Source: Nitrosopumilus sp.
GTDB taxonomy: Archaea > Thermoproteota > Nitrososphaeria > Nitrososphaerales > Nitrosopumilaceae
Reading direction: 5' to 3'
NCBI GenBank assembly: GCA_965218695.1
Contig: OZ244651.1
Coordinates: 1,536,001-1,600,000 of the forward strand
Length of the DNA stretch: 64,000 nt
A program made the position numbers and the translations under genes. This document shows positions 27,029 to 45,536 of this stretch, one piece after another (the stretch's first letter is position 1; every line of letters begins with the position of its first letter). Under the pieces are notes generated by a model that was given only the letters and a program-made list of their open reading frames with translations, was not told the origin of the DNA and ran no database searches.

Positions 27029-27163
27029 AAATTGGAATGGCTGTTAACTTGGCGTGATCTTTCTGGACCAAATGCGCTGGTAACTATTTATGAAAAAAAC
27101 GCGCGCGAAGTGCTTGGTGTATAGTGGATTAGGCAGGTTATAAAACGCAAACACTATGTCCTG

Positions 27164-27364
27164 TTGATGACAAGCGAATATGAGGAACTGGTGGCAGAAA
27201 AAGAACAAATTGAAGCAGAATTTGGACAAATCGTTGAAGGCCAAGCACAAGCCATACATGACATGCAAGAACGGGCATTAGATGATGGTGAGAGAAGGAA
27301 AGACGAAATACGGGCTAGGTTGGGGGAGATCAACCAGCGGTTAAACGAGATACGCGGTTCTTAA
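27164..27364 (+). CDS. Small coiled-coil hypothetical protein
   Basis: 66 aa, E/R-rich heptads; TTATAAA ~25 nt upstream. Confidence 0.6.
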   Translation: MMTSEYEELVAEKEQIEAEFGQIVEGQAQAIHDMQERALDDGERRKDEIRARLGEINQRLNEIRGS

Positions 27365-27737
27365 ATTGCCTCTGCATGTATTCTACGCGTCGGCGCGAGG
27401 AATACGCCGTGTTGTCCGGCCCTTTCTGATCACAACACGGGGGTCATATAAGATGGCATGAAGTCTCTTTCGGCAGTTGGTAGTAGAATAGTTTGGCATA
27501 ACGGGTTGGTTTTAGCGGGCAGGTTTGGCGCGAACTTGGTCGTTGCAAGAGGTTTTATTAAAAACTAAAAACCTTACAAGAACATGATCCAACACCAAAC
27601 CCAAGTCTGCACAGAATGCGACCGTTTTGAAAAGAAAACACACAGGCAATTAGTTTTACACACGTCCCAGGTCATGCAGACGTTACGGTTTTGCCGTCGT
27701 AACATTGATAAAATATGAAATATGTGGAGTGTATGCA

Positions 27738-28832
27738 ATGATATCAAAGACACCAAACCCGAGAAAACGAGTAGCCATTATCGGCGCTACCGGCTCAGTT
27801 GGACAGGAGTTTGTCCAGTCTCTTGACGGGCATGATTGGTTCGAGGTAACGCAGATAGCCGCCTCTGAACGCTCCGCTGGCAAGAACTATCTTGATGCCA
27901 TAAGGGATTCAAGCGGAATCATAGCATGGGACGTTGTAGGGGAGATACCGGAGTACATAAAATCGATGACCGTGCGCCGGATAGACGAGCTTGACACTTC
28001 AAGCCTTGATCTGGTATTTTCCGCAGTAGAGTCAAAGGCAGCCCGCGACATTGAGACCCGGATGGCGGCCATGCTGCCGGTGATATCCACGTCGTCCGCG
28101 TACCGGTACGAGAAGGACGTCCCCATACTCATACCTGGTATCAACGACGCGCAATCGGACCTGCTGGACGTCCAGAGCAGGAACCGCAACTGGAAGGGCT
28201 GGGTGGCACCGCTGCCAAACTGCACCACGACGGGTCTTGCCATCACGCTAAAACCCCTCCTTGACAAGTACGGCGTTAAGCGCGTCTTGATGACGTCGAT
28301 GCAGGCGATATCCGGTGGAGGCAAGACAGGGGTGTCTGCAATGGGCATCACAGACAACATACTTCCTTACATACCAAAGGAGGAAGACAAGGTCAAAAAG
28401 GAGACTAGAAAGATACTTGGAACGCTCAACGGCGAGAGGATCGAGGACGCTGACATCGGGATCAGTTGTACCTGCACCCGGGTACCCGTAATCGACGGGC
28501 ATACCGAGTCGGTGTTCGTCGAGACCAGGGGCGAGATTGACCCGCAAAAGGCAAAGGAGGCGTATCACGACTACAACCATACAGTGTCGGTGGCCGGGTT
28601 GCCGTCGGCGCCAAGAGACTATTACGCGTTTCACGAGGATCCTACCAGGCCGCAGCCGCGCATGGAGCGGACTGTGGGTGACGGCATGACTACCACGGTC
28701 GGCAGGGTGGAGAAGGAGGACTTGTTTGAGAACGGGCTCAAATATGTGCTGTTCTCGCACAACAAGAAGATGGGTTCTGCAAAGGGTGCTGTTCTGCTTG
28801 CAGAGATGCTGTACACAAAAGGCAAGATTTGA
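27738..28832 (+). CDS. asd: Aspartate-semialdehyde dehydrogenase
   Basis: GATGSVGQ, ASERSAGK, PNCTT, QAISGGG, CTRVPVIDGH. Confidence 0.95.
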   Translation: MISKTPNPRKRVAIIGATGSVGQEFVQSLDGHDWFEVTQIAASERSAGKNYLDAIRDSSGIIAWDVVGEIPEYIKSMTVRRIDELDTSSLDLVFSAVESKAARDIETRMAAMLPVISTSSAYRYEKDVPILIPGINDAQSDLLDVQSRNRNWKGWVAPLPNCTTTGLAITLKPLLDKYGVKRVLMTSMQAISGGGKTGVSAMGITDNILPYIPKEEDKVKKETRKILGTLNGERIEDADIGISCTCTRVPVIDGHTESVFVETRGEIDPQKAKEAYHDYNHTVSVAGLPSAPRDYYAFHEDPTRPQPRMERTVGDGMTTTVGRVEKEDLFENGLKYVLFSHNKKMGSAKGAVLLAEMLYTKGKI

Positions 28833-29371
28833 GTTTCGTGTAAGACGTAACCATGATTCAGGTTTAATGGTGTGTAACCGTTGATTTGGATTTCCTAAAT
28901 CTTGAGCGTGTTGCTGCATTTCGGACAAGGCCTGCCAGTCATCAGCAGTCAAGTTCTTCCGGTTCTGGCACGTCGTGTTCAGGGCATATTTCATTCACTG
29001 GTACCAGTGCTATAGTACGTGACAAAGATGGCTACCAGCAACTCATGACAGAATCGGATTTTGGGTTCTGTGATGCGGCTCTGTTAAATTCTAGTGATCG
29101 GATCACTAAAATCTACCAGAGCCACGGTAATTGGTAATAAGGACATGATCCAGTTTGCAGTAGATTCCACAAGCCTCAAGTAGCACAACAGGGGGAGTGG
29201 CTGAGGCAAAAATAGAAGATACGACACGGATTCGTAAGGATGCACGTCTTAGTGGATGTTGACACGAGAAAGATGCTAGCCGTCTGGGTAACTAACAACC
29301 GGACGGAAGATTCAACCATGCTCATTCTGTTGCTTGATGATGCTCTAGATAATTACGTGTGCTAGTACACT

Positions 29372-30845
29372 AGAAAATATGCGTAATCCAGATTTTTTTC
29401 AAACTCCGCGTTGACATGTTAGCCCTGCTGTCAAAAATTTATGATCCATCCAATTAAAACCAAAATATGCCGGTTCATACTGTTGTCGAATCAGAAAACA
29501 AGCGACCTGCAAAAAGAGAATAAGGCTCTCAGAGACATAATCAAGCGCCAGGACGCAGCTGCCAGGCACGAGCAAAGCCTGTGGCGCACACGGGACGGTT
29601 CCGAATCCGGAGCCGCAGGAGAGCCCGCCCTGTTGCACCGCGTGGAGGTGCTTGACGACATCATCAGAGTCGAGAAAAATCTTCATGACGCGACGCTGAA
29701 GTGCAGGGAACAGTTCCAATACATACTTGACAGGGCCGAGGCGTGGATAAGGCAAAGCGGCAAATCCCCACTCTTCAGGAATGACGAGACGAGGGCATCG
29801 GATCCCGGGAACCGCTGCAAGCTGTACCCAAGGCACGCGCTGCTCATGTCACTGATGTACAAAAAGGGCAACCCCACGCAGGGCGTGCTTGCGGCATTCT
29901 TTGGAATAGACCAGGCAACCGTGTCCCGGTATATCGATGTACTAGACGAGGTGCTTGACGTGGCGCTGCCCACTGCTGCCAACATCTCAAAGGAGATGGC
30001 AGACACGGAGACAAAAGAGGATCTCAAAAAAATAATTTCCGGACCTGACGGGGGCATCATGATGATCGACGGCACGCACTGCCCCATACAGAGGCCGGAC
30101 GAAAAACAGATGAGAAGCATGATGTATTCTGGCAAGAAGAAAAAGTTCACCCTCAATACCACCGTGTGCATAAACGAAAACGGGGTGATAGTCGCCATAT
30201 CCGACAGCACCGTGGGATCCGTCCACGACATCACGCTTCTCAGGGAGAGCCCGCTGCCATTTGGAAAGTGGTGGGACCGCATGTGCGACGAGAACACCCC
30301 CGAAGAGGACAGGGTCCACACCCTTACTGACCGCGGTTACAAGGGAATCGCAAAGGATATGCCCGGTACAAACACCCTGCAGCCGCACAAGAAGACCAAG
30401 AACCACAAGCGCTTTACAAAGGAGGAAAAAGAACACAACCACAAAATCAATTCCGCCCGGGTAAAGGTAGAGCACTCCATTGGCAGGCTGAAGCGGTACG
30501 GCCGGCTTACCGCGCCATACAAGGGAAAGATTGGCGACTTTAACAGGGAATTTAACATAATAACCGGGCTTGTAAACCTGGACCTCGTGTGGAACTACCT
30601 GGAGAAGGGACCCCCTTCAGGCGGCAATCTGGGGCCGGTAATAAACTGGGAACAGGCAAACGTCCCCGGCAGCGCCGTTTCAAACAATTAATTCCGTGCA
30701 CATCGCGGTGCTGCAAGGCTGCGCACGTTATTTCGCATTTCGGGCAGGACGGGTTCGCACACGCTTGACATGACGGGAATTAAATCAGAATTTTTAACAT
30801 TTTCCGGTTTAATTCAGCGAAATGGAGGGATTACGCATAGTTTCT
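29372..30845 (+). mobile_element. IS5-family (ISL2-like) element
   Basis: TIR AGAAA(A/C)TATGCGTAATCC; 3-bp TSD ACT; second copy at window start. Confidence 0.9.
29441..30691 (+). CDS. ISL2-like transposase
   Basis: IDGTHCPIQRP, YSGKKK, HD, TDRGY, RVKVEHSIGRLK. Confidence 0.9.
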   Translation: MIHPIKTKICRFILLSNQKTSDLQKENKALRDIIKRQDAAARHEQSLWRTRDGSESGAAGEPALLHRVEVLDDIIRVEKNLHDATLKCREQFQYILDRAEAWIRQSGKSPLFRNDETRASDPGNRCKLYPRHALLMSLMYKKGNPTQGVLAAFFGIDQATVSRYIDVLDEVLDVALPTAANISKEMADTETKEDLKKIISGPDGGIMMIDGTHCPIQRPDEKQMRSMMYSGKKKKFTLNTTVCINENGVIVAISDSTVGSVHDITLLRESPLPFGKWWDRMCDENTPEEDRVHTLTDRGYKGIAKDMPGTNTLQPHKKTKNHKRFTKEEKEHNHKINSARVKVEHSIGRLKRYGRLTAPYKGKIGDFNREFNIITGLVNLDLVWNYLEKGPPSGGNLGPVINWEQANVPGSAVSNN

Positions 30846-31257: not shown

Positions 31258-32922
31258 CTATTCCATATCGGACTCTTCAGAGGTATCGTTGACCAGATCC
31301 GGCTGAGGCCGCTGGTCTTCTTCTCGTTTGATTATCCTCTTCTCGATCTCCTTGCTCAGTAGTTTGGAACGCTTCGTTAGGAAAGTGTCATATTTGTCGG
31401 ACTCGACGCCAAACTTGTCAAGATCCCCTATCAGATGTGTTTTCATGGTGCTGGCAATATGGGGGTTTTTTTCCTTGAATTCGGCCATGTAGTCGGAGGG
31501 CGCACGGTCCCGTATACTTCTCTTGTTTAGGAAGTCATCCACGATGGTGATGTTAAGAACGTGATTGATTTTTTCGTCTTCCATATCCATCTTCTTCAGG
31601 TACGCCTTGGGGAAGAAGTGGTGGTAGTTCTTGCTGTTTGCCTGTTTGAGCCATGTGTTGTCGATGTTGACTAGGCTGTTGTTATCGAAGGATTTTGGTT
31701 GGTTGTACGCGTATATGCAGAGAATTGCTTTGATGTAGCTCCTTCCGACACTGAAGCGTCCATTTCGGTGGATAAAGTCTACCGAGGTATCTATTGGCCA
31801 GTCGTACGTTGGAAGCTCGCCGTCCAGTATCCTATCTACGTGTTTCACGTCCTGCGCAAGCTTGGTTTCAACGCCAGAGGAGTACCTTGCGGACAGCGAG
31901 ACCCTCCAGAAAAAATCGTCCAAATATCTTTGCTTGTCCCCATATGGCCTGCCTTCGTGTTTGAAAAAGAAATACGCGAGCGGTACAATCAGAGTCTTGT
32001 ATGGTAACATGTTTGATACGGGTATTCTGTAGTAGTCCTTGAGATAGTCTACGGCTTCCTTGATTGCCTCCATTATTCTGTCCCAAATGTCGATGATTCT
32101 CTCTTTCGCCAGTGACAGAATGATTTTTTTCTTGCATTCGCCTTCAAGCGCGAGTGAAATGGTCTGCAGGATTGACATATCATATAGCGTCTCATATCCC
32201 ACGTTGTCAAGCTCTTCGATCAACGCCCTGAATTTTTCAGACAAGTCAAAGTCGCTCTTAAGATCGTATGTCTTAGCCACCATTATCTCGAAGGTGGAAA
32301 GACGCGTCCCACCCTCGTTCATGCGGGTAAAGATTTCAGTTGCGATGTGTATCGGCGCATCGTTTACCTCTATTACAGAGAAGTTGTAGGCCTTCAACGT
32401 GTTCGAGTATTCCTTCAGTTTCCCATGGTATTTGGGGTCATATTTCATGAGATCGGCAAAGTTACCGTCGTACAGTGTTTTCAGGTCAATAACGGAATGT
32501 TGCCCGGCCTTGTCGTTTTTTACCATTATGATCGGCCCACCATCCTCCGCCTCAAGGTCCACCACGATGCGGCCAAAATCTTCCTTCTTGCCGTCACCGC
32601 GCGGGATCGTTTCACCCATTAGAGCCGCAATCAGACTCGTTATTCTCTGTTGTCCGTCAAGCACGAAATGTACGTAGTCGCCCTCCGGCGGGTCTGGAAG
32701 ATTCATGCTGCCGACATTCCTGACGGAACGCAGTCTTTCCTTTGTCTTCCAAATGATGAATGTGCCTACTGGGTATCCCTTAATTATGCTGTCAAGGAGG
32801 CTTGCGGACTTGTTGAGATTCCAAACGAAATCGCGTTGAAACTGGGGTATCTTGATTTTTCCGCTGGTAACTTTGTACATTAAATCTGACAGAGATTCGG
32901 TCGTCGGTTTGGGTAGTTCCAT
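31258..32922 (-). CDS. DUF262 (GmrSD-like) protein with C-terminal HNH/DUF1524-like domain; putative modification-dependent restriction nuclease
   Basis: IPQFQRDFVW, LDSIIKGYPVG, LDGQQRITS, IFTRMNEGGTRL, HHFFPK...N...N; start placed at MELPKP. Confidence 0.85.
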   Translation of the reverse strand: MELPKPTTESLSDLMYKVTSGKIKIPQFQRDFVWNLNKSASLLDSIIKGYPVGTFIIWKTKERLRSVRNVGSMNLPDPPEGDYVHFVLDGQQRITSLIAALMGETIPRGDGKKEDFGRIVVDLEAEDGGPIIMVKNDKAGQHSVIDLKTLYDGNFADLMKYDPKYHGKLKEYSNTLKAYNFSVIEVNDAPIHIATEIFTRMNEGGTRLSTFEIMVAKTYDLKSDFDLSEKFRALIEELDNVGYETLYDMSILQTISLALEGECKKKIILSLAKERIIDIWDRIMEAIKEAVDYLKDYYRIPVSNMLPYKTLIVPLAYFFFKHEGRPYGDKQRYLDDFFWRVSLSARYSSGVETKLAQDVKHVDRILDGELPTYDWPIDTSVDFIHRNGRFSVGRSYIKAILCIYAYNQPKSFDNNSLVNIDNTWLKQANSKNYHHFFPKAYLKKMDMEDEKINHVLNITIVDDFLNKRSIRDRAPSDYMAEFKEKNPHIASTMKTHLIGDLDKFGVESDKYDTFLTKRSKLLSKEIEKRIIKREEDQRPQPDLVNDTSEESDME

Positions 32923-33091
32923 TACCGAGGTCGATCCAGTACTCTGATAAACGTTTCCGCCAGGAGGGAATCTGAATTGACCGATTCCGATGATACATCT
33001 GCCTTGCGCAACCGGCAGGCTCAAACACCGCCCCCGGATACAGGCACGTAGCATTAGACATACTTTTAACCACATCCGACACCACCCAATC

Positions 33092-36000
33092 ATGACACTC
33101 ACAACATCCAGTTTTGGTGATGTTGTGAAACATTTGGAACGCGTTGCCAAGGGGGACGGCAAAACCGAGGGTGATCTCTTTGAAGCATTGATGAGATCCT
33201 TCCTCAAGACAGACGAACTCTACCGCGACCGGTTCCGCAACGTGTGGCTGTGGATGGAATATCCTGAAAGGAACGGAAGGGGTGATTTTGGCGTCGATAT
33301 TGTGGCAGAGGAGCAGGACGGGGGATTGTGCGCCATACAGTGCAAATTTTACCCCCACACGAAGCTGACCAAGTCGCACATAGACAGTTTCCTTGAGGCA
33401 GGCAGCAGGGACGAGTTCGATTCCATGCTGCTCATATATTCCGGCGACGGGTACGGGGCCAAGGTCGAAGACGCGCTGAAGGGGCACGGCTGCCGGATTC
33501 TTGACTTCATGGCGCTTGCAGGAAGCAACATGGACTGGCCGAACTTGGCCAAGGGGCTTACGGAAGTCAGGCAGAAGCCCAAATACGGCCTGCGGGACGA
33601 TCAAAAAGACGCGGTAAGGGACGTGAAACGCGGACTTGAAAGTACTGACAGGGGACGAATGATAATGGCATGCGGCACGGGCAAGACGCTGGTTTCGTTA
33701 AGGCTCGCAGAGGACATGATCGGCAAGGGCGGACTGGTACTGTATGCCGTCCCGTCCATATCATTGATGCACCAGGCGATACGGTACTGGTCAGAACAGA
33801 AGAGAATCCCGCACAGCTACGTGGGCGTGTGTTCTGACCCAAAAGTTAGCCACAGAACCGGGCGCGAAGATACCCCCGACATTTCGATCTCCGAGATGGA
33901 AATCAGGGTCACGACGGATCCGGACAAGATTGCCAAAAGCCTGAAGAAGACGGCTGGAAAACTGACCGTGGTTTTTTCGACATACCAGAGCATGAAGGCA
34001 ATCGTCAAGGCGCAGGAAAAGGCAGGCACGGCATTTGACCTGATACTGTGTGATGAGGCGCACCGCACGGCGGGCATAGAGCAGGGAAGCATGGAAGACA
34101 TGTCGCCATTCATGCTGGTGCACGACGAGGTGGATACCAAAAAGCGACTCTACATGACTGCGACGCCGAAAATATACGGGAGCGCGGTAAGGACGAAGGT
34201 TGCAAGGAACGATGCAAGGCCGTACTCCATGGACGACGAATCCAAGTTCGGTCCCTTGCTTTACGAAATGGGGTTCGCCGCCGCCATAGACCGAGGACTG
34301 CTCTCGGACTACAAGGTGGTGGTCTTGGGCGTGGACGAGCGGTACGGCGGACGCGCGTTGCAAAACATGATAAACACCACCACCGAGTCAGGCGACATCA
34401 ACCTGACAGACGCAGCGCGGATGCTCGGGCTGTACCGCATCCTGAACGAGCCCGACCAAGACATCGACATGCCCCCACTCCAAACGGCCATCGTATACAC
34501 CAACCGGGTACGGGATTCCAAATCGTTTGCCAACACGTTTGACAAACTGGCAATGCAGGTAAGCGACGAAGGCGGGTTGCGCTGTAGCGCGACGCACGTG
34601 GATGGCACGCAGAACGCGTCTGTCCGCGCGTCCGCACTGCAGCATCTGCGCGACAGCGCAAGCGACCCCGGAGAATGCAGGATACTCTCAAACGCCAAAT
34701 GCCTGTCAGAAGGCGTCGACGTTCCGACGCTTGACGCAGTCTGTTTCATGAACCCGAAATCGTCAAAGGTCGGGATAGTCCAGGCAGTCGGCCGGGTCAT
34801 GAGGAAAGTAGATGGCAAGGATTACGGCTACGTCATACTGCCCATCGGAATTCCCCCCAACGAGAAAGCGGAGACCATCTTGGACAACCACAACGTCTTT
34901 GACATGGTGTGGAACGTGCTGAATGCCATGAGGTCGCATGACGCCAACATGGACGTCGAGGTAAACACGGCAGATCTCAGGAAAAAGATGATAGACAAGG
35001 TAAAGGTGTTCGGCGTTGACCGCGAAGGTAAAATTCGAAAGGCGGGGGATGATCCAAAAACGTACCCACTAGGTGAACTTGACGTTGATGCGGATGCCCT
35101 GTATGCCAAGATAGTCGAAGAAGTCGGCGACCGGCGCTACCTGGAATACTGGGCAAAGGATGTGGCAACAGTGGTGGCGCGACTACAGGAGCGCATAGGC
35201 CTTGCAATAACCAACAATACGGCCAGGAAGAAATTCGACCTGTTCATGAAGGGCTTGCGCGACATCATAAACGACAGCATCACGGAATCCGACGGTATCG
35301 ACATGCTTGCGCAGCACATGGTAACGCGCCGCATATTCGACGCACTATTTGGCTCGGACGACTTTACCAAGCAGAACCCGATGTCCGCCGTGCTTGATGA
35401 CACCGTGGGAGAACTGCAAAGGCATGGCCTGGAATCCGAGATGAAGGACATTGAGGGGTTTTATGCCAGCATCGAGAACCGTGTCGCAGGACTGGACACC
35501 CATGACGCTAGGCAGCCGGTAATCGCGGAATTGTATGGAAAGTTCTTCAAGAAGGCATTCCCAAAGATGGCCGACAGGTTGGGTATCGTCTACACGCCCC
35601 CGGAGATAGTGGACTTTATCCTGCGCTCAGTCGATCATGTGTTACGGGAGAACTTCGGGCGCGGCCTGACAGACAAGAATATCAACATCATAGATCCATT
35701 TACTGGTGCCGGAACGTTTCTGGCACGGCTGATGTCGCCTGAACTTGGTCTCATACAGGATCGGGACATCAAGCGGAAATACAAGAGCGAGATGTATGCA
35801 AATGAAATTGTACTGCTGGCATATTATATCGCAGCAGTCAACTGTGAATCCGCATATGGATACAAGACAGGTTCTTTCAAGCCTTTTTCTGGCGTTTCCC
35901 TCACAGACACATTCAATCCGGGAAACATGGACGAGTATGCCGGGGATGTCATGACAGGCCCAAAGGAAAGAATCAGGAGACAGCGCGAATCCCCCATAAC

Positions 36001-38122
36001 GGTAATCATGGCGAATCCCCCATACTCTGTAGGTCAGGGAAACGCCAACAAAGACAACAGGAATACGTCACACCCAATGTTGGAAGGAAGATTAAGAGAG
36101 ACGTATGTCAAACGAGCCCCCAAGGGCAACAAGGTATCTTTGTATAATTCCTACATCAAGGCATTCAGATGGGCATCTGACAGGATTGGAGAATCCGGTG
36201 TGATAGGGTTTGTAACACCGGCTTCATTTATCACCGGAAACGCGGAAGCCGGTGTCCGTGCTTGTTTGTATGGAGAGTTCACAGACATATGGTGCTTCAA
36301 TCTGCGGGGAGATGTAAAGAACAAAGATACATGGAAGAAGGAGGGCGGCAAGATATTTGGGAGTGGTTCCAAAGAACCCATCGGCATTACCATTTTGGTT
36401 AAGAATCCCACCAAGCGCGGTTGTACCATACACTACAAACAGGTGGATGATTATCTTACCCAAGGGGAAAAACTGGATGTTGTCCGGAACGTGGGTTCCA
36501 TTATGGGTATTGAAGGCTGGGAGGATGTATTTCCAGACAAGCACCATTATTGGATAAACCAGCCCGGATTGGCAGGCGAAGAGTTTGAAAGACACATGTG
36601 TATGGGTAGTAAGGAAGTGAAACGCGGAAAGAGTGTTGAAGCGATGTTTGGTACATATTCACGAGGAGCTGCGACATCACGTGATGATTGGGTATACAAC
36701 ACATCTGAAAACGAATTAGAAGTAAATATGAGACGACATATTGATTATTGCAATTCTCAGGATCCGGATAATTTTATAATAAACCCAAAACAGGCGAAGA
36801 GTAACACTTCTTTGACAGAACGTATGAAACGACTCAAAAATATTATGTTTGATAAACATCAAATACGCACATCATTATATCGACCGTTTTTCAAACAGTG
36901 GTTGTATTTTGACAATACTTTTGTGGAGTCTAAATATCGAATCCCGTCATTCTTCCCTTCTAACACATCCAAGAATCTGGCCATCATGATTCCTGACAAG
37001 ATCAAGGGCAAATTTTCCACATTCATGACAAACACCACCCCCGATCTACACATCCATGAGGCATCTCAATGCTTTCCCATTAAGGCAAAGAGTGATATTG
37101 GCAAAAAACTAACGCCTTTTGTCACCACCCGTAACCCACTCAGAACCCACTCAGAACCCACTCAGAACCCACTCAGAACCCACTCAGAACCCACTCAGAA
37201 CCCACTCAGAACCCACTCAGAACCCACTCAGAACCCACTCAGAACCCACTCAGAACCCACTCAGAACCCACTCAGAACCCACTCAGAACCCACTCAGAAC
37301 CCACTCAGAACCCACTCAGAACCCACTCAGAACCCACTCAGAACCCACTCAGAACCCACTCAGAACCCACTCAGAACCCACTCAGAACCCACTCAGAACC
37401 CACTCAGAACCCACTCAGAACCCACTCAGAACCCACTCAGAACCCACTCAGAACCCACTCAGAACCCACTCAGAACCCACTCAGAACCCACTCAGAACCC
37501 ACTCAGAACCCACTCAGAACCCACTCAGAACCCACTCAGAACCCACTCAGAACCCACTCAGAACCCACTCAGAACCCACTCAGAACCCACTCAGAACCCA
37601 CTCAGAACCCACTCAGAACCCACTCAGAACCCACTCAGAACCCACTCAGAACCCACTCAGAACCCACTCAGAACCCACTCAGAACCCACTCAGAACCCAC
37701 TCAGAACCCACTCAGAACCCACTCAGAACCCACTCAGAACCCACTCAGAACCCACTCAGAACCCACTCAGAACCCACTCAGAACCCACTCAGAACCCACT
37801 CAGAACCCACTCAGAACCCACTCAGAACCCACTCAGAACCCACTCAGAACCCACTCAGAACCCACTCAGAACCCACTCAGAACCCACTCAGAACCCACTC
37901 AGAACCCACTCAGAACCCACTCAGAACCCACTCAGAACCCACTCAGAACCCACTCAGAACCCACTCAGAACCCACTCAGAACCCACTCAGAACCCACTCA
38001 GAACCCACTCAGAACCCACTCAGAACCCACTCAGAACCCACTCAGAACCCACTCAGAACCCACTCAGAACCCACTCAGAACCCACTCAGAACCCACTCAG
38101 AACCCACTCAACCCGACAATAA
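33092..38122 (+). CDS. Type ISP (LlaGI/LlaBIII-like) restriction-modification enzyme, ending out of frame after a tandem repeat
   Basis: Mrr-like D..QCK nuclease, MACGTGKT, DEAH, TATP, QAVGRVMR helicase, DPFTGAG and NPPY N6-adenine MTase, TRD; start placed at MTLTTSSF. Confidence 0.92.
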   Translation: MTLTTSSFGDVVKHLERVAKGDGKTEGDLFEALMRSFLKTDELYRDRFRNVWLWMEYPERNGRGDFGVDIVAEEQDGGLCAIQCKFYPHTKLTKSHIDSFLEAGSRDEFDSMLLIYSGDGYGAKVEDALKGHGCRILDFMALAGSNMDWPNLAKGLTEVRQKPKYGLRDDQKDAVRDVKRGLESTDRGRMIMACGTGKTLVSLRLAEDMIGKGGLVLYAVPSISLMHQAIRYWSEQKRIPHSYVGVCSDPKVSHRTGREDTPDISISEMEIRVTTDPDKIAKSLKKTAGKLTVVFSTYQSMKAIVKAQEKAGTAFDLILCDEAHRTAGIEQGSMEDMSPFMLVHDEVDTKKRLYMTATPKIYGSAVRTKVARNDARPYSMDDESKFGPLLYEMGFAAAIDRGLLSDYKVVVLGVDERYGGRALQNMINTTTESGDINLTDAARMLGLYRILNEPDQDIDMPPLQTAIVYTNRVRDSKSFANTFDKLAMQVSDEGGLRCSATHVDGTQNASVRASALQHLRDSASDPGECRILSNAKCLSEGVDVPTLDAVCFMNPKSSKVGIVQAVGRVMRKVDGKDYGYVILPIGIPPNEKAETILDNHNVFDMVWNVLNAMRSHDANMDVEVNTADLRKKMIDKVKVFGVDREGKIRKAGDDPKTYPLGELDVDADALYAKIVEEVGDRRYLEYWAKDVATVVARLQERIGLAITNNTARKKFDLFMKGLRDIINDSITESDGIDMLAQHMVTRRIFDALFGSDDFTKQNPMSAVLDDTVGELQRHGLESEMKDIEGFYASIENRVAGLDTHDARQPVIAELYGKFFKKAFPKMADRLGIVYTPPEIVDFILRSVDHVLRENFGRGLTDKNINIIDPFTGAGTFLARLMSPELGLIQDRDIKRKYKSEMYANEIVLLAYYIAAVNCESAYGYKTGSFKPFSGVSLTDTFNPGNMDEYAGDVMTGPKERIRRQRESPITVIMANPPYSVGQGNANKDNRNTSHPMLEGRLRETYVKRAPKGNKVSLYNSYIKAFRWASDRIGESGVIGFVTPASFITGNAEAGVRACLYGEFTDIWCFNLRGDVKNKDTWKKEGGKIFGSGSKEPIGITILVKNPTKRGCTIHYKQVDDYLTQGEKLDVVRNVGSIMGIEGWEDVFPDKHHYWINQPGLAGEEFERHMCMGSKEVKRGKSVEAMFGTYSRGAATSRDDWVYNTSENELEVNMRRHIDYCNSQDPDNFIINPKQAKSNTSLTERMKRLKNIMFDKHQIRTSLYRPFFKQWLYFDNTFVESKYRIPSFFPSNTSKNLAIMIPDKIKGKFSTFMTNTTPDLHIHEASQCFPIKAKSDIGKKLTPFVTTRNPLRTHSEPTQNPLRTHSEPTQNPLRTHSEPTQNPLRTHSEPTQNPLRTHSEPTQNPLRTHSEPTQNPLRTHSEPTQNPLRTHSEPTQNPLRTHSEPTQNPLRTHSEPTQNPLRTHSEPTQNPLRTHSEPTQNPLRTHSEPTQNPLRTHSEPTQNPLRTHSEPTQNPLRTHSEPTQNPLRTHSEPTQNPLRTHSEPTQNPLRTHSEPTQNPLRTHSEPTQNPLRTHSEPTQNPLRTHSEPTQNPLRTHSEPTQNPLRTHSEPTQNPLRTHSEPTQNPLRTHSEPTQNPLRTHSEPTQNPLRTHSEPTQNPLRTHSEPTQNPLRTHSTRQ
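37133..38110 (+). repeat. Perfect 11-bp tandem repeat (AACCCACTCAG) x88 plus a 10-bp partial unit
   Basis: 978 bp, no deviations seen; stop-free on + strand, encodes (NPLRTHSEPTQ)n in all three frames. Confidence 0.97.
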
Positions 38123-38232
38123 TAGTACCCGACAAGATCAAGGGCGAGTTTTCGGTATTCATAACGAACGTGACGCCGGATTTGGAAGCGGTGCATCACG
38201 GCCAATGCTTTCCGATGAGGGTGATGGAATGA
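38110..38232 (+). other. Second, diverged copy of a Type ISP target-recognition segment, currently out of frame
   Basis: NPTIIVPDKIKGEFSVFITNVTPDLEAVHHGQCFPMRVME* versus NLAIMIPDKIKGKFSTFMTNTTPDLHIHEASQCFPIK at 36974-37084. Confidence 0.9.
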
Positions 38233-38912
38233 AGGATAACATCACGGATTGGGCATTGCAACAGTATCAGACGGCGTACAAGGACAACACCATCACGAAG
38301 GAAGACATATTCTACTACACGTATGGCATTTTGCACCACACCGGATATCGTGGCAAGTACCAAATTGTCTTGGTGCGCGGCCTTCCGCGCATCCCGATGG
38401 CTCCTGATTTTTGGGCATTCAGTGATGCCGGAAAGAGGCTTGCAGATCTGCACTTGGGGTATGAGACGTGTCCAAGGTATGATTTGGGCCAGCCGCTCAA
38501 CAAAATACCGGACGGTCCACGTGCCATAAAATTTGGAAGAAAGCCGGATCCTGATAATGTCGCCAAGACCATTGACGACGAATCCGTGCTTTTCATAAAC
38601 GGTATCAAGGTGTATGACAACATTCCGGCGATATCATACAAGGTAAACGGACGCACGCCGATAGGGTGGTTTGAAGACAGGTACAAGTTTTCCACGCACA
38701 AAGAGAGCGGCATCACGAATTATCCTCTGGAAGACGTAAGTGGTGATGATATACGCGGGATAATAGAACGCCTTGTCCATGTTGGTGTGGAGTCAGACAA
38801 AATTATGGTCGGACTGGCAAAAAAAGAGTTTGAGTCCGGCAAGGATTGGCAGCCTGCAAAGACCGGGATGGACGCGCATATGCAGTCTGGGGCGTTTCAG
38901 AGCACGTTGTAA
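38229..38912 (+). CDS. Type ISP C-terminal domain as a separate ORF
   Basis: MKDNITDWAL..ITKEDIFYYTYGILH..YR..Y...LPRIP..G..LADLHL.YE; GAGGGTGA Shine-Dalgarno-like motif at 38217-38224 and ATGA overlap. Confidence 0.8.
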   Translation: MKDNITDWALQQYQTAYKDNTITKEDIFYYTYGILHHTGYRGKYQIVLVRGLPRIPMAPDFWAFSDAGKRLADLHLGYETCPRYDLGQPLNKIPDGPRAIKFGRKPDPDNVAKTIDDESVLFINGIKVYDNIPAISYKVNGRTPIGWFEDRYKFSTHKESGITNYPLEDVSGDDIRGIIERLVHVGVESDKIMVGLAKKEFESGKDWQPAKTGMDAHMQSGAFQSTL

Positions 38913-39019: not shown

Positions 39020-39697
39020 TTGGCTCAACAAAAATGGACAATTCCAACAGACATGTTAATAGATGGCTCTCTACATTGTGTAAAAAATGCAAAACGGTTG
39101 TCGGAAGACGCGAAATCACTGTTTGAATCTAAGCGCTATTCGTCGTGTCTATCGTTAGCAGTATTGGCATTAGAAGAATTAGGAAAATCGTTCATGCTGC
39201 TAGATGCATACGTGAAAAAACAGGAAGTAGAATCGAGGGATTGGTTTAAAAAATTTAGTTCACATCGAGAAAAATTAGAATTTTTAAGCGATTATCTCAG
39301 AACAAACTCTAATGACGAATCTCATAAAAACTCACTCGATAAAATGACCAATCTTATGAGAGCATTGTTAGAGAAAAAAATGGATTCGTTGTATGTCGAC
39401 TGGAACGGCACCCGAGGGGGATGGCGTTACTTTGATGAGCATGAAGGCGATAAGCAAAGAATTGCAAAAGAGGCTTTAACAGCATGCAAAGTGCTTATAG
39501 ACACCGTGTCCAAAAGCCTTGGTGACAGCGGTTTAAAGCTTCCTAACGAAATTGCAGAATCATTACGAAATGGTAAGGCCTATGGTTTTTGCGAAGAATG
39601 TGGCTTGTGTATGCTAACAGCGACAGATGTTAGAATCCACAGCATACAAACTGCCCACTACAGAATGTCATGGTATTCTGTGCCAGAAAAATCATAA
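39020..39697 (+). CDS. AbiV-family (HEPN) abortive-infection protein
   Basis: NAKRLSEDAKSL...SLAVLALEELGK, FSSHREKL, SLYVDW; AT-rich. Confidence 0.8.
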   Translation: MAQQKWTIPTDMLIDGSLHCVKNAKRLSEDAKSLFESKRYSSCLSLAVLALEELGKSFMLLDAYVKKQEVESRDWFKKFSSHREKLEFLSDYLRTNSNDESHKNSLDKMTNLMRALLEKKMDSLYVDWNGTRGGWRYFDEHEGDKQRIAKEALTACKVLIDTVSKSLGDSGLKLPNEIAESLRNGKAYGFCEECGLCMLTATDVRIHSIQTAHYRMSWYSVPEKS

Positions 39698-40324: not shown

Positions 40325-42583
40325 GTAAGAGGTCGCCTTTGCGAAGCGATTTCGTGCCTGATCTGCCCCGATTAATTACCAACTGAGCTACGTTTTCGGC
40401 CGTAAATGCCCATTTAATTGGCATTATTCTGAGTTTTTCCGGGGGAGTCCGACTGAGCTACGTTTTGGCAGATCCGGTGATCGGGCTTGCGAAGTGGCCT
40501 TTTTTGGCGCTGTCCGGGGCGGTGCGTTGTGCCCGAATCGGGTGGCGGGCCGGCACGGCGGCCTGACATGTCAGGCAACCGGTGCGACGGGAGTCGCGCA
40601 GGACATGCAGGGCAGCCATGGATGGATTTTGCAGGATTTATGCAGCTGTTGCTGCTACTGCCGGTATTTTTTCGACCATGCCTCGCATGTAGTCGACCAA
40701 AAAGTCGTGCGGGTTGACGCCGCGCATCCTGCACGTCTCGCGGATGGTGGCCAGGACGGCGTGGTTGTATGCGCCGGCAAGGCTCTTGCTGCCGCCTGAG
40801 ACCTTCCGGGATGCGACGCTGGGCCGCAGGGGACGCTCGGCATCGTTGTTATGGCACTTTGTGTTGAGGCGGATGAATGGGAACAGATGGGTGATCTCGC
40901 GCCGCAGCCGCTTGACAAACCGCTTGCAGTGGGGTTCGGTGTAGCTGCCAGACATCAGGCGCCTCACCCGGGCCAGGAGGTTGCGCACCTTGAGGTTTCG
41001 CGCGGCCTTGTCGTCATGCGGGTTGAGTCCCTTCTCTGCGTGCCAGGAATCGATGATTATCCCCTTTAGGGCCTTGGCAAACTTTTTGAATTCTGGCCCC
41101 GGGTTTTTCATGGCCAGGGTGCGGATGATCTCGCGGAGATAGTGGTAGTGGCACTTTTGGTGGGTTCTGCCGATGCGGTTCCACGCGGAGTGTGAATCAG
41201 AGGTGACGTGGCCTGCGTACCCTCCAAGCAGGGTCTCCAGCACGTCTCCTCCCCGGCGCTTGTCCACGTAAAAGACAGTCGAGTTGTCACCGACTAGTAT
41301 CCACAGCCAGTACAGCACACCGGCTACCCTCCAGCTGGTCTCGTCCCCGAAGACATGCTCTGAGAAGAATATCTCCTCGAGCATCTCCTCGTAGAGCGGG
41401 TGGAGGGATCCTGTCACGGCATCCACGTGGCCGATGACAGTCGACTTTGCAAGGCCCGTGTGGTAGATTATGTTGATCAGCTTGCGGATGGGTTCGTATG
41501 GAATGTTGTACATCCTCATCGTCGTCTCAAGGCACGTCAGGCTGGCGCCGAACCGTCCACCGGGGACGACCCCTGGGATCTCGGGGGCAAACTGCCTGCC
41601 GCATTCCCTGCAGTACCTGCGGACGACGGTATACTGGATGCCGGTCAGCTTCCCGTCGATAATCTCCTCGACTACCCGGATGGTCACCTCGGTGGGCTCC
41701 TTCGAGAGGGCATGGCCGTGCGGGCAGGCGGGCATGTCGACTAGCTTTTTTTCGGATATCGGGGGAGGATCACGGCCGGTGCGCAGGCAGACGACCTTCC
41801 TGAACGGATTCGGCGCAGGCCCGGGCGATTCCCGGAGCCGCTTCTGGGAGCGGCGGCTTTTGATGCCCAGATTCTCGGCTGCCAGCGCCGAGTTGGCCGC
41901 GCGCGCCTCCCTCAACTGAGAGGCATGCTCTGATGCCTGCTGCTCCAGGCGGGCTATCCTGTCCATGACTGCCTGCGAGACGTCGCATCCCTGCAGGAGG
42001 GCGGCATTCTCTGCCCGCAGCTTCTCTACCTCTACCTTCAAATTCTCCATATCTCCTCCCAGATTCTCTATCTCTGCATCTTTCAGCTCTATCTCGGAGT
42101 CCTTTTGTTCTATCTCGGAGTCCTTTTGCACATTCTCTTCTTCCAGCAGTTTGATCCTGGCATCCATCTCCGTCAGCATCGCGTGTTCCCCTGAGAAGGC
42201 CTCTGCCTCCTCCTTCAGCTGCTCGATGTCTTTTCTCAGCGCCATGCTCTCCTCGTCCTTGGATTTGAGCATGTCAAGGACGGATTCGAAGAGGGACCTG
42301 GTGTCTGTTACGGAGTTCCAGTCAATCTTTTCCAAGTCGATTACAGGCACCACGCCATAACACGGGAAGGCATGATCCATAAAGCTTTTGGGCACGCAGC
42401 GCCTGCCGGAAAATGCGGCGCAAAAGATCCAACCGGAAGAGCCTTGATCCGAAAACCGCCCTGTCTGAGGACCGTGTTGATAACGTGCAATTAATCGGGT
42501 ATTTATGGTCAAAAACGTAGCTCAGTTGGTAATTAATCGGGACAGATCAGGCACGGAATCGCTTCGCAAAGGCGACCTCTTAC
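40325..42583 (-). mobile_element. IS66-family element with ~70-bp TIRs
   Basis: GTAAGAGGTCGCCTTTGCGAAGCGATT...CAACTGAGCTACGTTTT at both ends; 8-bp TSD TCAAAAAG. Confidence 0.93.
40638..42512 (-). CDS. IS66-family transposase with long coiled coil (true start probably downstream of 42512)
   Basis: GDETSW, SDSHSAW, QKCHYH, HNNDAERPLR. Confidence 0.88.
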   Translation of the reverse strand: MTINTRLIARYQHGPQTGRFSDQGSSGWIFCAAFSGRRCVPKSFMDHAFPCYGVVPVIDLEKIDWNSVTDTRSLFESVLDMLKSKDEESMALRKDIEQLKEEAEAFSGEHAMLTEMDARIKLLEEENVQKDSEIEQKDSEIELKDAEIENLGGDMENLKVEVEKLRAENAALLQGCDVSQAVMDRIARLEQQASEHASQLREARAANSALAAENLGIKSRRSQKRLRESPGPAPNPFRKVVCLRTGRDPPPISEKKLVDMPACPHGHALSKEPTEVTIRVVEEIIDGKLTGIQYTVVRRYCRECGRQFAPEIPGVVPGGRFGASLTCLETTMRMYNIPYEPIRKLINIIYHTGLAKSTVIGHVDAVTGSLHPLYEEMLEEIFFSEHVFGDETSWRVAGVLYWLWILVGDNSTVFYVDKRRGGDVLETLLGGYAGHVTSDSHSAWNRIGRTHQKCHYHYLREIIRTLAMKNPGPEFKKFAKALKGIIIDSWHAEKGLNPHDDKAARNLKVRNLLARVRRLMSGSYTEPHCKRFVKRLRREITHLFPFIRLNTKCHNNDAERPLRPSVASRKVSGGSKSLAGAYNHAVLATIRETCRMRGVNPHDFLVDYMRGMVEKIPAVAATAA

Positions 42584-43620
42584 TCAAAAAGGCAGAAATA
42601 TTCCTGCAAGCAGTGCAGGTACCGGTTCGTCCTGTCCGAGAGCGGGTTCTCAAAAGTCAGCTCGGAACCCAAAATCATCACCGAATCCATTAACCTGCAC
42701 TTTTCGGGAATGTCACTGCGTAAAATATCACGGCACGTCAAGATCGCACACGGTCGGGAGATCAGCCACGTCGCAGTGTACAAGTGGATCGAGAAATACA
42801 TGGGGATCATAGGGGCGTACGTGGATTCCATCGTGCCGAACACGGGCGACGTGTGGAGCCTTGACGAGATGATGTTAAACGTCAAGGGCACGAAAAAGCT
42901 CAACTGCAAGGGATTCCACGTCTGGCTCTGGTCCATAATCGACCCCCAGACCAGGTTCGTGATCGCCACAGAGGTGTCAAAGAGACGGGAAATGCCCGAC
43001 GCCAGACGCATAATCCGGAAGGGCAAGAATGCGGTCTTGAAGAATCCGAGTTACGTGATTACCGATTCCCTGAAAAGCTACGAGGGCGCGATAAGGAAGG
43101 AACTGGATGCGAGGAAGACGGCACACGTCAAGACCCGCTCGCTCAAGGACGGGTTCCAGAACAGGCCGATAGAAAGGTACCACAACGAACTGAGGGAGAA
43201 TACCAAGACCCGGCGCGGCCTGGGCAACGACGAATCCGCCCAAAAATTCGCAGACGCGCAAAGAATCAAACACGACTTCTTAAATCCGCACTCCGGACTC
43301 CCGGGCAACATTACCCCGGCGGAAGCCGCCGGTATAGACCTGAACTTGGGAGACGACAAGATCAGGGACCTCATATCCCTAGGTTCGCAAAAGAAGAACT
43401 TCGTGACCCACCTAGGGAAGCGGGTGGACAAGGTGACAATCGTAAACGAGACGGATTCAATCAAGGTTACCCCCAAGACATGGATTGACAAGAGAGTCTG
43501 GCGGGAGATCAACGACATCCTCAGACTGAGCAGTTTTAGTTGGCTGTCAAACGGCAGACACAGTTGCTGGATCAAGCCGACTGGAGAGTAAAATACATCA
43601 TCTCACAAAACTTGACCGCT

Positions 43621-43774
43621 TATACTGACACGCCAAAGTTCTTGCAGCACCAAATACCGTGCACCGCCACATTGATCGATTTCAGTCTCAAATCAGGCAC
43701 GAATTAATTCTAGACGTAGCCAATAATCTACATCCAGTGAAAAATGAGTGCATAAACTTTGGCGTGTCAGTATA
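43621..43774. mobile_element. 154-bp MITE
   Basis: Perfect 20-bp TIR TATACTGACACGCCAAAGTT; target either TA or the flanking GCT. Confidence 0.85.
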
Positions 43775-43792
43775 GCTAAACATGAAGTTATT

Positions 43793-45536
43793 GTAAGTGA
43801 TTCGCTTTTTGAAGTTCCGCTGGCTTTGCGCGCCTATACTCGCGCAGCCTCCCCATCCGAGAGCGCGGATCGTGCCGAATAAATGGTGACGCAGGCTCCG
43901 TTGTCAGCCGTCGCCGGACGCAGAACGCACCAAGTGGTCGAAGAAGCTTTCTCTACGGACGCGGTCAGTGGCCAGCATGGTAAACAGCACGGAATTTGCG
44001 TCCATGCCCTTCCGGGACCGGTTGCCCCCGCCGTCGTTCCTCACTGAGACGAACCTTCGGTTGGCTCTCTCCACCGCGTTGTTGTCCGGACTGATGCCCG
44101 GGGTCCGCAGGCATGTTGTCATGTAGTACCCCTCGCGGTAGCGCCGCTTGCGGTATTTGGCGATGGTGCCGTGCCTGTCGTCTTGGTACGGGGCGGCAAA
44201 CAGCCCCGCCGGTTCCGAGTCTATGCAGTCAGCCGCCACGGCCCTGGAATACGGGTCCTTGACGCGCCAGGCGCGGTAGATCTTTTTGTGCACGGCAGAC
44301 AGCCCGGCCAGGAATTCGGTCACGTCCCCGCCTGGATTCCACTCCAGATCCTTCTGCACCAGGCGCTCCTGGTGGACCACGCACATCTGGCGGGCCGACC
44401 CGACATGGAGCCACGCCGGGTACGAGTCCTGCGTGATGATCCCCTCGTAGCCTGGCAGTACTCCCTTGATGGTCTTTGTCTTGCGGGAGTCTACTATTTC
44501 CACCAGGCACGACTCCTTGCCGAGTGCGACCACGCCGTAGCCGCGCCTGCCCTTGAGTGGCCAGTGGAACTCGTCGGCCCCCAGGTGCGGCTCTTTGAGG
44601 ATCTTTTTCCTCACGGCGTCGCGTTCCGGGGCCATCTGCAGGGCCCTGCTTATCTTGTTCCTGTATGCAGACGAGCAGGACACGGGCGTGCCAAGCGCGT
44701 CGCCTGCGAATTCGGCGGATCTTGCGTGGGACAGACCCGACATATTCAAAAAGTTGAGCACGGCGCCGACGTTGGCCCCGTAGCGCGCGTGCGGCGCGGT
44801 TCCGGGAGGCTTGGCAGAGACCTGTTTCTTGCAGTCCCTGCACCAGCGCCTGACTGTCACGTACTTTATGGTCTTTACAAGCAGGGTCAGCGTCTTGACG
44901 ATCCGGTCGTATTCGCCCGTGGGGTTCTCCGAGACGTTCTTCCCGCCGCACCCGGGGCACCTGTCAAAGTCTACGATCTCCGTGCAGTCTACCTTATCGG
45001 GCCTCTTGTTGATCGTGGCCTTTTGCCCCTTGGGCCTGCCTGCCTTACCGGGATTGGTCTTCTTTTTGGAGGAAGGCATGCTTATCCCGTTTGCCCGGGC
45101 GCTGAGTTTGCGGTTTGCCTCGGCGTGCTTCTTGTTGTCTTCTTTCAGGGACTTTACCTGGGCCTGAAGACTCTCCGCCTCATTGCCGTCTGACGCACCT
45201 GCAACCTCGCGCGCCATTTTCAGGGTCTTGACGGCAGCATCCACGGCATCACGCACCACGCCTGACCAGTACTGGCAGCATCTACATTCGGATTTCATGC
45301 AGGCACCGCAGTCCTGCGCGGAACGTTCAAGGATTGCCTTAAATCCCTCCTCTTCCAAGCATGTTTGGCGTGTCGGTTCCTTCATTTGTGGTTAGCTGAA
45401 GGGACTGGCACCCGCTAGTACTTGGATCTCTACAGACAATTAATTTTGACAAAGCGTGAAAAAATCCTTGGGTTCCGTCCCGGCACGGTGACTACCGGCA
45501 GGGGAATCAGGGCACTTCAAAAAGCGAATCACTTAC
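43793..45536 (-). mobile_element. IS66-family element without matching TSD
   Basis: Perfect 23-bp TIR GTAAGTGATTCGCTTTTTGAAGT. Confidence 0.88.
43904..45385 (-). CDS. IS66-family transposase
   Basis: MPSS, GRPKG, CPGC/CRDC, ADE, QDSY, QMCVVH, PDNNAVERANR. Confidence 0.88.
   Translation of the reverse strand: MKEPTRQTCLEEEGFKAILERSAQDCGACMKSECRCCQYWSGVVRDAVDAAVKTLKMAREVAGASDGNEAESLQAQVKSLKEDNKKHAEANRKLSARANGISMPSSKKKTNPGKAGRPKGQKATINKRPDKVDCTEIVDFDRCPGCGGKNVSENPTGEYDRIVKTLTLLVKTIKYVTVRRWCRDCKKQVSAKPPGTAPHARYGANVGAVLNFLNMSGLSHARSAEFAGDALGTPVSCSSAYRNKISRALQMAPERDAVRKKILKEPHLGADEFHWPLKGRRGYGVVALGKESCLVEIVDSRKTKTIKGVLPGYEGIITQDSYPAWLHVGSARQMCVVHQERLVQKDLEWNPGGDVTEFLAGLSAVHKKIYRAWRVKDPYSRAVAADCIDSEPAGLFAAPYQDDRHGTIAKYRKRRYREGYYMTTCLRTPGISPDNNAVERANRRFVSVRNDGGGNRSRKGMDANSVLFTMLATDRVRRESFFDHLVRSASGDG

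Follow-up and report, generated by a model that had tools for sequence, protein, structure and literature searches.

To our knowledge, nearly all phase-variable restriction-modification (R-M) systems described so far belong to host-adapted bacteria and take the form either of ON/OFF switches at repeats or of shufflons that work by recombination. In Neisseria, a poly-G tract is reported to change specificity by way of a truncated HsdS. The closest described counterpart of the locus reported here is the Type IIG gene Cj0031/Cj0032 of Campylobacter jejuni NCTC11168, where a G9 tract at position 2573 of 3732 bp acts as an ON/OFF switch (PMC4889913). Here we analyze a 64,000-nt stretch of a Nitrosopumilus sp. 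genome (assembly GCA_965218695.1, contig OZ244651.1, positions 1,536,001 to 1,600,000 of the forward strand; henceforth the window, in which all positions are counted from its first letter). The window carries a Type ISP R-M gene whose target recognition domain (TRD) is interrupted by 88.9 perfect copies of an 11-nt repeat. We propose, as the likely reading of the evidence below, that this array occupies a conserved switch site of Nitrosopumilaceae Type ISP genes, that the gene is a slippage-driven contingency locus with three states, and that the allele in the window is OFF.

The C. jejuni gene resembles the archaeal locus in that a single-chain R-M enzyme carries a frame-shifting repeat about two-thirds of the way in, with conserved domains on both sides, and in that a change in repeat length yields two open reading frames (ORFs). 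As described, it differs in being a bacterial homopolymer with two outcomes, without a duplicated recognition segment, a region open in two frames or a conserved stop/start overlap. Its homologues are otherwise reported to be without the tract (PMC4889913), whereas the archaeal site is kept across many loci with different repeat motifs. In domain order and TRD fold the archaeal enzyme is like the Type ISP enzymes LlaGI and LlaBIII (PDB 5FFJ and 4XQK; PMC4872093), and the segment duplicated in the archaeal gene corresponds to their beta-hairpin plus Loop VI; in the published account these two enzymes have one copy of the segment in one frame, no repeat and no phase variation.

Other systems share single features. 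The Type III mod and Type I hsdM/hsdS phasevarions also use slippage at simple sequence repeats (SSRs) for random, reversible R-M switching, but those described in PMC5909438 and PMC7383803 are ON/OFF systems of bacterial pathogens and commensals with short units, whereas the archaeal locus has three outcomes, lies in a Type ISP gene, and has units of up to 11 nt and an array of 978 nt. In hsdS-recombination systems such as pneumococcal SpnIV/tvr (PMC6265443), recognition modules lying side by side likewise change the target; in such systems the module is selected through recombination, whether site-specific or homologous, or, as in the Neisseria case, through truncation, whereas at the archaeal locus the candidate choice between Loop VI versions would be made by the reading frame. 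The EcoKI hsdM-hsdS pair offers a precedent for a one-nucleotide overlap with translational coupling and for a fused chain that is still active, but that fusion was engineered and the pair is described without a natural switch between split and fused forms (PMC3510504). Our literature searches returned no report of a Type ISP gene switched by a repeat, of a comparable dual-coded segment, or of phase-variable R-M in Thaumarchaeota, and a 2025 review of phase variation speaks of an archaeal distribution still to be explored (PMC11868660).

Results

The length of a perfect 11-nt array would determine which of three downstream frames is read

Tandem Repeats Finder (TRF) reported one array (37133-38110; period 11, 88.9 copies, 100% matches, 0 indels) and no other, and a regular-expression search resolved it into 88 complete units (37133-38100) and a final partial one of 10 nt, 978 nt in all. 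In a count across the whole 2.63-Mb, 9-contig genome, the 33-nt triple unit occurred 86 times, every time within this array, with 0 occurrences on the reverse strand and 0 for a reversed control sequence. Each of the three plus-strand frames passes through the array without a stop and reads a cyclic NPLRTHSEPTQ. The gene thus holds the element that characterizes a contingency locus, a tandem repeat lying inside a reading frame (11 nt, 88.9 copies, 100% perfect), with a unit whose length three does not divide.

At the present length, the upstream ORF (32990-38122) terminates as ...STRQ* at a TAA shortly after the array. Since 11 equals 2 modulo 3, removing one unit leads into a second frame and adding one unit into a third. 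The second frame reads NPTIIVPDK...QCFPMRVME* (in full, NPTIIVPDKIKGEFSVFITNVTPDLEAVHHGQCFPMRVME* at 38110-38232) and ends at a TGA (38230-38232) overlapping an ATG (38229-38231), and the third stays open from 37119 until it meets its stop at 38912. We call these outcomes OFF, B and F, respectively, and the window allele of 88.9 units is in the truncating, OFF frame. The earlier note, written from the sequence, had placed an array stop-free in three plus frames within the TRD-coding region and had worked out the same three outcomes, and TRF, pattern search and translation all agree with it. Its "second TRD cassette" is indeed read with one unit fewer and does end at a TGA overlapping an ATG, but it amounts to a duplicate of only 40 residues (38110-38229), copied from a TRD sub-segment at 36974-37084. 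We refer to the original and the copy as segments A and B, to the segment-B DNA read in the C-terminal frame as altB, and to the C-terminal ORF as ct (Table 1). A and B are 59% identical over 34 residues, and the duplicated unit spans ~38-40 residues.

The gene around the array is intact: 1381 residues upstream and 227 downstream of it are open. Its likely start is Met35 of the ORF beginning at 32990 (position 33092), the residue at which the public proteins P0122 and P0242 begin; the ORF from the first ATG overlaps, over 32990-33207, the 5' end of a divergent GmrSD-like ORF. Pfam profiles identify an Mrr-family nuclease at the N-terminus (PF13156 Mrr_cat_2, E 4.4e-26, residues 73-189), a superfamily 2 (SF2) helicase-like ATPase with a coupler (ResIII 3.1e-20, Helicase_C 1.4e-9, ISP_coupler 3.6e-36) and a gamma-class N6-adenine methyltransferase (N6_Mtase, E 1e-6) with its NPPY motif in ...IMANPPYSVGQ.... 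The Type_ISP_C profile is broken exactly at the array, positions 2-153 matching before it (6.3e-31) and positions 166-327 after it (1.8e-41), the latter in 232 residues that start at 38214 in the third frame. As all the domains of a Type ISP enzyme are present, as the earlier note's assignment of the gene would have it, we conclude that this is a complete Type ISP R-M gene with a TRD interrupted exactly at the array. The single polypeptide typical of the type is interrupted past the array in the window allele, and in the near-identical P0122 it is one chain of 1624 residues, whose short array could be an assembly collapse. The source genome also holds a repeat-free canonical paralogue (G000:C6:19774-22395, L011/L015) with coupler, methyltransferase and TRD in one 1047-aa frame; its identity to the window gene is 43-50%, beginning at residue 721, with no nuclease-helicase part aligned.

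The split-TRD layout is conserved in the Nitrosopumilaceae

A Pfam scan detected Type_ISP_C in 19 of 151 genomes of the genus, and in many of these the profile is split at the same position and accompanied by an extra copy of positions ~100-157. Analyzed with TRF and tblastn, the loci keep a constant order, namely a half-TRD with segment A, an SSR, segment B in its own frame and ct in another frame. We found this layout in 12 loci of the genus, in further public Thaumarchaeota loci from metagenome-assembled genomes, and in genomes of the family. When 185,579 species genomes were scanned with an alignment of altB and the start of ct, 28 stretches matched, 14 of which encode a relative and represent 13 loci; the record titles of all 13 name Nitrosopumilaceae, Nitrosopumilus, Cenarchaeum or Thaumarchaeota. 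A scan at family level gave matches in 31 of 401 genomes, and 15 of these genomes have full-length matches that take in the B region. Among metagenome contigs of the Joint Genome Institute, a 32-nt stretch of the array had no match, and the altB-ct alignment found three weak loci, matching ct only.

The repeats at the switch site differ from locus to locus: dinucleotides, with (GA)n of 4-26 units and (AC) or (CA) of 5-12.5 units; poly-G tracts (G7, G11 and G13); the 7-mers CCTCAAA, ACTCACC, AGACTCC and ATCCGCA in 9-17 units; and the 8-mers AGTCCACC, AGCCAGTC and AACCAGTC in 1.5-7 units. Together with the window array, unit lengths are thus 1, 2, 7, 8 or 11 nt, none divisible by three, and Type ISP genes with such repeats at the same position are found in many Nitrosopumilaceae loci. 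The earlier note inferred that the ~1-kb minisatellite would be a new kind of phase or specificity variation; the three-frame layout that it described is indeed conserved and under selection (see below), but it is not peculiar to a minisatellite, as the relatives use short SSRs.

All three states occur in nature. Leaving aside L027, whose upstream half is missing, L035, where everything shares one frame, and the partial cassette L046b, the 27 loci that could be scored comprise 11 in state F, 9 in state B and 7, including the window locus, in state OFF. Fused open frames of 1686, 1445, 1109, 1102 and 1012 residues confirm state F in relatives.

Some loci depart from the common plan. A second subtype (type 2; L024, L025 and L038) has a different B-to-ct frameshift. 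In L035 and the partial cassette L046b, B and ct share one frame, which probably represents the ancestral tandem duplication, as judged from the arrangement of the copies. The L046b cassette (L046:5030-6018) lies ~2 kb downstream of a complete locus; the last part of an A-like copy leads into (AGTCCACC)2.1, and after this come a B-like copy and ct, which share a frame. Tandem duplication may have left this cassette behind, or it could serve as a donor for recombination. L035, in which A, B and ct share a single frame, has a (CA)31 tract ~170 nt upstream of the TRD (L035:742-801), possibly a second switch position in the Type ISP family. L043 is a triple arrangement with two repeat sites, A followed by (GA)4, B', G7, B and ct (L043:830-1300; the arrangement recurs in the proteins P0007 and P0162), and is now open in the fused frame across both out-of-frame copies. 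In L027 (L027:1300-1730, genome G153), (CCTCAAA)11.4 precedes B and ct, stops close all frames upstream and the first TRD half is missing; its 5' part seems to have been lost or exchanged. One relative in the family, G311, carries at least seven loci (L071 and L089-L094) with different 7-mer and 8-mer repeats and in all three frame states, apparently a battery of independently switchable Type ISP genes.

Segment B is kept readable in two frames

We compared segment B across 14 loci (91 pairs, 32 codons), omitting L037, near-identical to L021, and L053, which has a one-codon insertion, from a set of 16. In its own frame, nonsynonymous differences per site (pN) are 0.205 and synonymous differences per site (pS) 0.615, a pN/pS of 0.33, as opposed to 1.50 for altB, the ct frame over the same DNA. 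Counted by B-frame codon position, the differences are 7.9, 5.0 and 15.7, so that they fall mostly at third positions. The ratio in the B frame implies that B has been kept as a protein in its own frame since the loci diverged, and the ct-frame reading, on the same comparison, appears to be unconstrained as an amino-acid sequence.

The ct frame across B is nonetheless open in all loci, with 0 stops over 42-49 codons in 16 of 16 and 5-8 stops per locus in the third frame. As a control, coding sequence of these genes was read in the same offset frame: 459 of 5542 codons are stops, and open 40-codon windows make up 2.65% of 4333. The third position of a B codon that precedes an AA/AG/GA codon is never T (0 of 87), as compared to 395 of 1493 (26.5%) in the controls. 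Thus, the DNA behind the repeat is maintained in a form readable in two frames, which makes sense only if ribosomes arrive in both.

Between loci, copies of B are up to 78-85% identical at the amino-acid level, as compared to ~45-60% for the flanking TRD halves. We rejected gene conversion between A and B as the cause of this conservation, because A and B within a locus (~40-65%) are less alike than B between loci.

The junction between B and ct is also conserved. In 16 of 16 loci of the first subtype (type 1), the stop of B overlaps an ATG (ATGA in 15, TGATG in 1), two or three codons ahead of a conserved DNITD motif. In canonical single-copy homologues, a single frame covers QCFPLYxY...NITD, and Met stands at the overlap position in only 2 of 11 cases. 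ATGA and TGATG overlaps are described as sites of termination-reinitiation coupling in archaea and bacteria (PMC6728339, PMC10666635). Public proteins include 704 short homologues (146-466 aa) at E<=1e-10. Among the 120 best, 92 begin with M(M)xDNITD, 8 carry altB, 7 have their start slightly further upstream, by a few residues, and the other 13 take different forms. The counts show that the split form is common, and do not thereby prove initiation at that ATG. An upstream start of ct inside altB was considered and rejected, as the Met there is not conserved. With regard to programmed ribosomal frameshifting from B to ct, inspection of the overlap by eye revealed no slippery heptamer.

The duplicated unit corresponds to a DNA-reading loop

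The TRD halves match those of LlaBIII (4xqk), LlaGI (5ffj) and DrdV (7lo5). According to the LlaGI/LlaBIII study, bases are recognized by Loops IV, V and VI of the TRD, LlaGI H1368 and LlaBIII N1360, both in Loop VI, read position +3, and a conserved beta-hairpin lies at 1347-1358 (PMC4872093). When segment A was aligned to LlaBIII 1318-1363 with HMMER, N1360 fell opposite the H of PDLH, the residue after PDL. This alignment and the position of the hairpin identify the duplicated unit as the hairpin plus Loop VI.

In the window gene, Loop VI is PDLHIHEASQ in A and PDLEAVHHGQ in B. The two versions differ in 18 of 18 loci in which both copies were found (L025 was left out of this comparison, since the search pattern missed its A copy), and the difference includes the position aligned with N1360. 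There, the A/B pairs are H/E in 9 loci, Q/E in 4 (one being the three-copy locus L043), H/Q in 3, E/H in 2 and Q/G in 1. The Loop VI types recur in canonical enzymes, and a given type can occupy either A or B.

We modeled residues 1150-1624 of the fused allele P0122 with AlphaFold2 from a 91-row alignment. The mean predicted local distance difference test (pLDDT) is 85.1 and the predicted template modeling score 0.84, with 87-97 for segment A and ~97 for ct, and Foldseek aligns the model to 4xqk, 5ffj and 7lo5 with template modeling scores of 0.67-0.70 and E values down to 3.5e-25. Residues 192-238 of the model, which comprise the pre-array tail, the repeat peptide and altB, have a pLDDT below 50. 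The low values place the repeat peptide of state F in a predicted disordered loop, which makes tolerance of a longer insert plausible, not proven. In a second model, of L035, the first strand of A is combined with the Loop VI part of B (pLDDT 74-93, as opposed to 45-54 for the rest of A); since the input alignment is split in the same way, we give this model little weight. A complex prediction for the B-state C-part of L042 (5-row alignment) with ct (86 rows) scored 0.00, which speaks neither for nor against binding.

Array length varies between samples

Evidence on array length in public sequencing runs comes from Logan contigs (k=31), through depth ratios, which are not copy numbers, and graph topology. 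Six public runs from three studies contain the stretch, and four were compared using a query that included 36 nt of the array. In run X1, array-only contigs have depths of 420 and 425 against 4.9 in the flank, a ratio of ~86, in agreement with the multiplicity of 86-87 expected for each array 31-mer in a 978-nt array. The depths are 718 and 16.2 in run X4 (ratio ~44) and 50 and 4.8 in run X5 (ratio ~10). Run X2 has a 5.4-kb contig (depth 2) in which segment A is followed by exactly 99 nt, the length of 37034-37132, then by 32 nt of array and then by B and ct. Its graph contains no loop contig, which argues that a short allele of this kind is real.

Public proteins supply further alleles. P0122, from an ENA contig, is the same gene, with one mismatch in the 1347 N-terminal residues and an identical 266-aa tail; its array codes for NPLRTHSEPTQ once (2.9 units), which puts it in state F with a predicted fused protein, and the window's own 1676-aa OFF product falls in the same protein cluster. 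That cluster, drawn at 90% identity, also includes the more diverged P0243 (1391 aa), which has 10.9 units, is OFF and is accompanied by a separate ct protein, P0244. Across samples, the arrays come to ~89, 47, 13 and 3 units, a polymorphism of repeat number seen in contig-only data as depth ratios of ~86, 44 and 10 and the 32-nt passage of X2, and in public proteins as alleles of 2.9 and 10.9 units. Two other proteins, P0123 (PNQLTHSQPTE) and P0127 (NPLTHSQPTRNPLATHSQPRE), have a degenerate version of the 11-mer-coded peptide at the same place, from which it follows that the motif is older than the expansion in the window.

Genomic neighborhood and other repeats of the genome

Near the Type ISP gene lie GmrSD-like, AbiV HEPN and DEAD-box helicase genes and several transposases (Table 1), which make up a defense island. 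Six transposase ORFs (two DDE_Tnp_4, three of the IS66 family and one IS240-like) flank the defense genes at 23904-30691 and 40638-45385, and the island is, by this content, likely to be mobile or often rearranged. The GC content of the source genome, 52.8%, is consistent with the raised GC described for sponge-associated ammonia-oxidizing archaea (PMC7848895).

The genome contains other long perfect repeats. A 255-nt (TGCC)63.8 array (C1:301122-301376; L055:2123-2377) has an ABC-transporter permease-like ORF on one side and the next gene on the other; we considered it as a second in-gene switch and rejected it, as it is intergenic. Further perfect microsatellites are a 15-mer in 29.5 copies, a 21-mer in 29.6, a 10-mer in 8.4, (GCAG)12 and, twice, (GCAC)8; repeats outside the window were located at C1:2137301-2137742, C1:1637370-1637991 and C4:18046-18129, and there are 21 poly-G/C tracts of 9-12 nt. 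This richness may reflect many contingency loci or weak repeat stabilization.

Table 1. Coordinates of the switch locus and its neighbors in the window
Feature	Position	Strand	Basis or remark
GmrSD-like (DUF262) gene, divergent from the Type ISP gene	31258..33207	-	PF03235 GmrSD_N, E 3.7e-29
5' part of Type ISP R-M gene: Mrr-like nuclease, SF2 helicase-like ATPase, coupler, N6-adenine methyltransferase (NPPY), first TRD half	33092..37132	+	Pfam
Segment A: TRD beta-hairpin and Loop VI version A (..PDLHIHEASQCFPIK), in frame with upstream gene	36974..37084	+	Translation, LlaBIII alignment
Pre-array tail (AKSDIGKKLTPFVTTR)	37085..37132	+	Translation; model pLDDT falls from 73 to <50
11-nt perfect tandem array (AACCCACTCAG)x88.9	37133..38110	+	TRF, regular expression; proposed hypermutable frame selector
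Segment B: diverged duplicate of A, Loop VI version B (PDLEAVHHGQCFP), ends VME* at TGA overlapping ct ATG	38110..38232	+	
altB: segment-B DNA in C-terminal frame (PDNNSTRQDQGRVFGIHNERDAGFGSGASRPMLSDEGDG), linker at one unit more	38112..38228	+	Open frame
TAA stop of present (OFF) frame, 4 codons past array	38120..38122	+	
ct: C-terminal ORF, 227 aa from conserved ATG; remaining TRD core and guide subdomain	38229..38912	+	Type_ISP_C
HEPN AbiV-like gene	39020..39697	+	PF18728 HEPN_AbiV, E 1.2e-23

Discussion

The likely picture is that of a three-state contingency locus. Replication slippage would add or remove repeat units and, since the unit is not a multiple of three, each gain or loss would move the downstream frame among three outcomes. 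In state F, the upstream gene would be read in the ct frame to yield one full-length chain, in which A supplies the hairpin and Loop VI and the repeat peptide and altB form a disordered surface loop. In state B, the large chain would stop just past B, at the stop overlapping the ATG of ct, and termination-reinitiation would supply ct, so that the enzyme would consist of two pieces and carry version B of Loop VI. In state OFF, translation in the third frame would stop within a few codons. The window allele, OFF at 88.9 units, would go to B with one unit fewer and to F with one unit more. On this picture, the products of F and B would be active, and with ~89 +/- 1 units the enzyme would have to tolerate an insert of ~326 residues.

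Several observations weigh against this picture. The F and B frames are seen only as ORFs in genomes, with putative products, and the 11:9:7 ratio of states F, B and OFF shows no enrichment for the productive frames. The type-2 loci have no ATG at the stop of B. Because the loci are related, the naive binomial P of 2.5e-12 for the avoidance of T is overstated. The two short public alleles, at 32 and 120 nt, have exactly the length k+1 (k=31 and k=119) to which a de Bruijn assembler would reduce a long array, and both may be artefacts of such a collapse; only the X2 graph topology speaks for a genuine short allele. The arrays of relatives measure ~10-120 nt, which makes the 978 nt of the window an outlier at ~8 times the next longest (~120 nt), and the intergenic (TGCC)63.8 in the same genome indicates that long expansion is possible without function.

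These last two points lead to the strongest alternative, which we nevertheless hold to be unlikely and which does not exclude the contingency locus: the family-wide switch would be real, but the 978-bp allele would be a runaway expansion with no active enzyme in any frame, its ~326-aa low-complexity insert beside Loop VI blocking folding or DNA binding until a large contraction restored function. Besides the length of the array and the presence of long non-coding perfect arrays in the genome, this alternative draws on the OFF frame of the window allele and on the fused public proteins with altB, whose repeat-coded linkers are only ~4-25 residues long. It does not sit well with a gene that is otherwise intact and strongly matched by Pfam on both sides of the array, with the absence of stops from every frame of the unit, with an insert that falls in a predicted disordered surface loop, or with depth ratios that suggest ongoing length change between samples in both directions.

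A plain ON/OFF switch, in which the fused frame alone is productive and B, its frame and the overlap are relics of an old tandem duplication, would match the simple G9 switch described for Cj0031 (PMC4889913), the closest known case, and would suit the type-2 loci, which lack an ATG at the stop of B. We regard it as improbable, because a relic would hardly show purifying selection in its own frame (pN/pS 0.33, as opposed to 1.50 in the ct frame), exceed the TRD halves around it in conservation between loci, or keep its overlap in 16 of 16 type-1 loci when Met stands at that position in 2 of 11 canonical genes. An assembly artefact, whether in the array itself or in its length, is highly improbable, for although long perfect tandem arrays are error-prone in assembly, the stretch occurs in six runs from three studies, the array-only contigs of X1 have the 86-87-fold flank depth that 978 nt predicts, and degenerate copies of the coded peptide stand at the same site in P0123 and P0127.

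Going beyond a contingency locus as such, the repeat may be a frame-operated selector of two DNA-reading loops, by which slippage would set specificity 1, specificity 2 or OFF without recombinases. The fused frame would make only Loop VI version A, and the B frame would make version B, with the C-terminal half supplied by reinitiation. The differences between the A and B loops in 18 of 18 loci are what suggests a specificity chosen by frame, and we put this forward tentatively, as a possibility short of an even chance.

For the abundant marine and sponge-associated ammonia-oxidizing archaea, the finding is a conserved, selected three-frame switch in a single-chain R-M enzyme, with a dual-coded segment and two copies of a recognition loop. 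It also provides a natural test of insertion tolerance in a TRD loop and a warning for annotation, as hundreds of short "hypothetical" ORFs starting with MKDNITDWAL are halves of split Type ISP genes. If the targets of F and B differ, the locus would be a recombinase-free specificity switch and could create population heterogeneity in the virus defense and methylomes of globally important archaea. Should the repeat in fact select between the two loops, it would represent a new route to diversity in restriction and methylation specificity and would provide clear contingency loci in Archaea.

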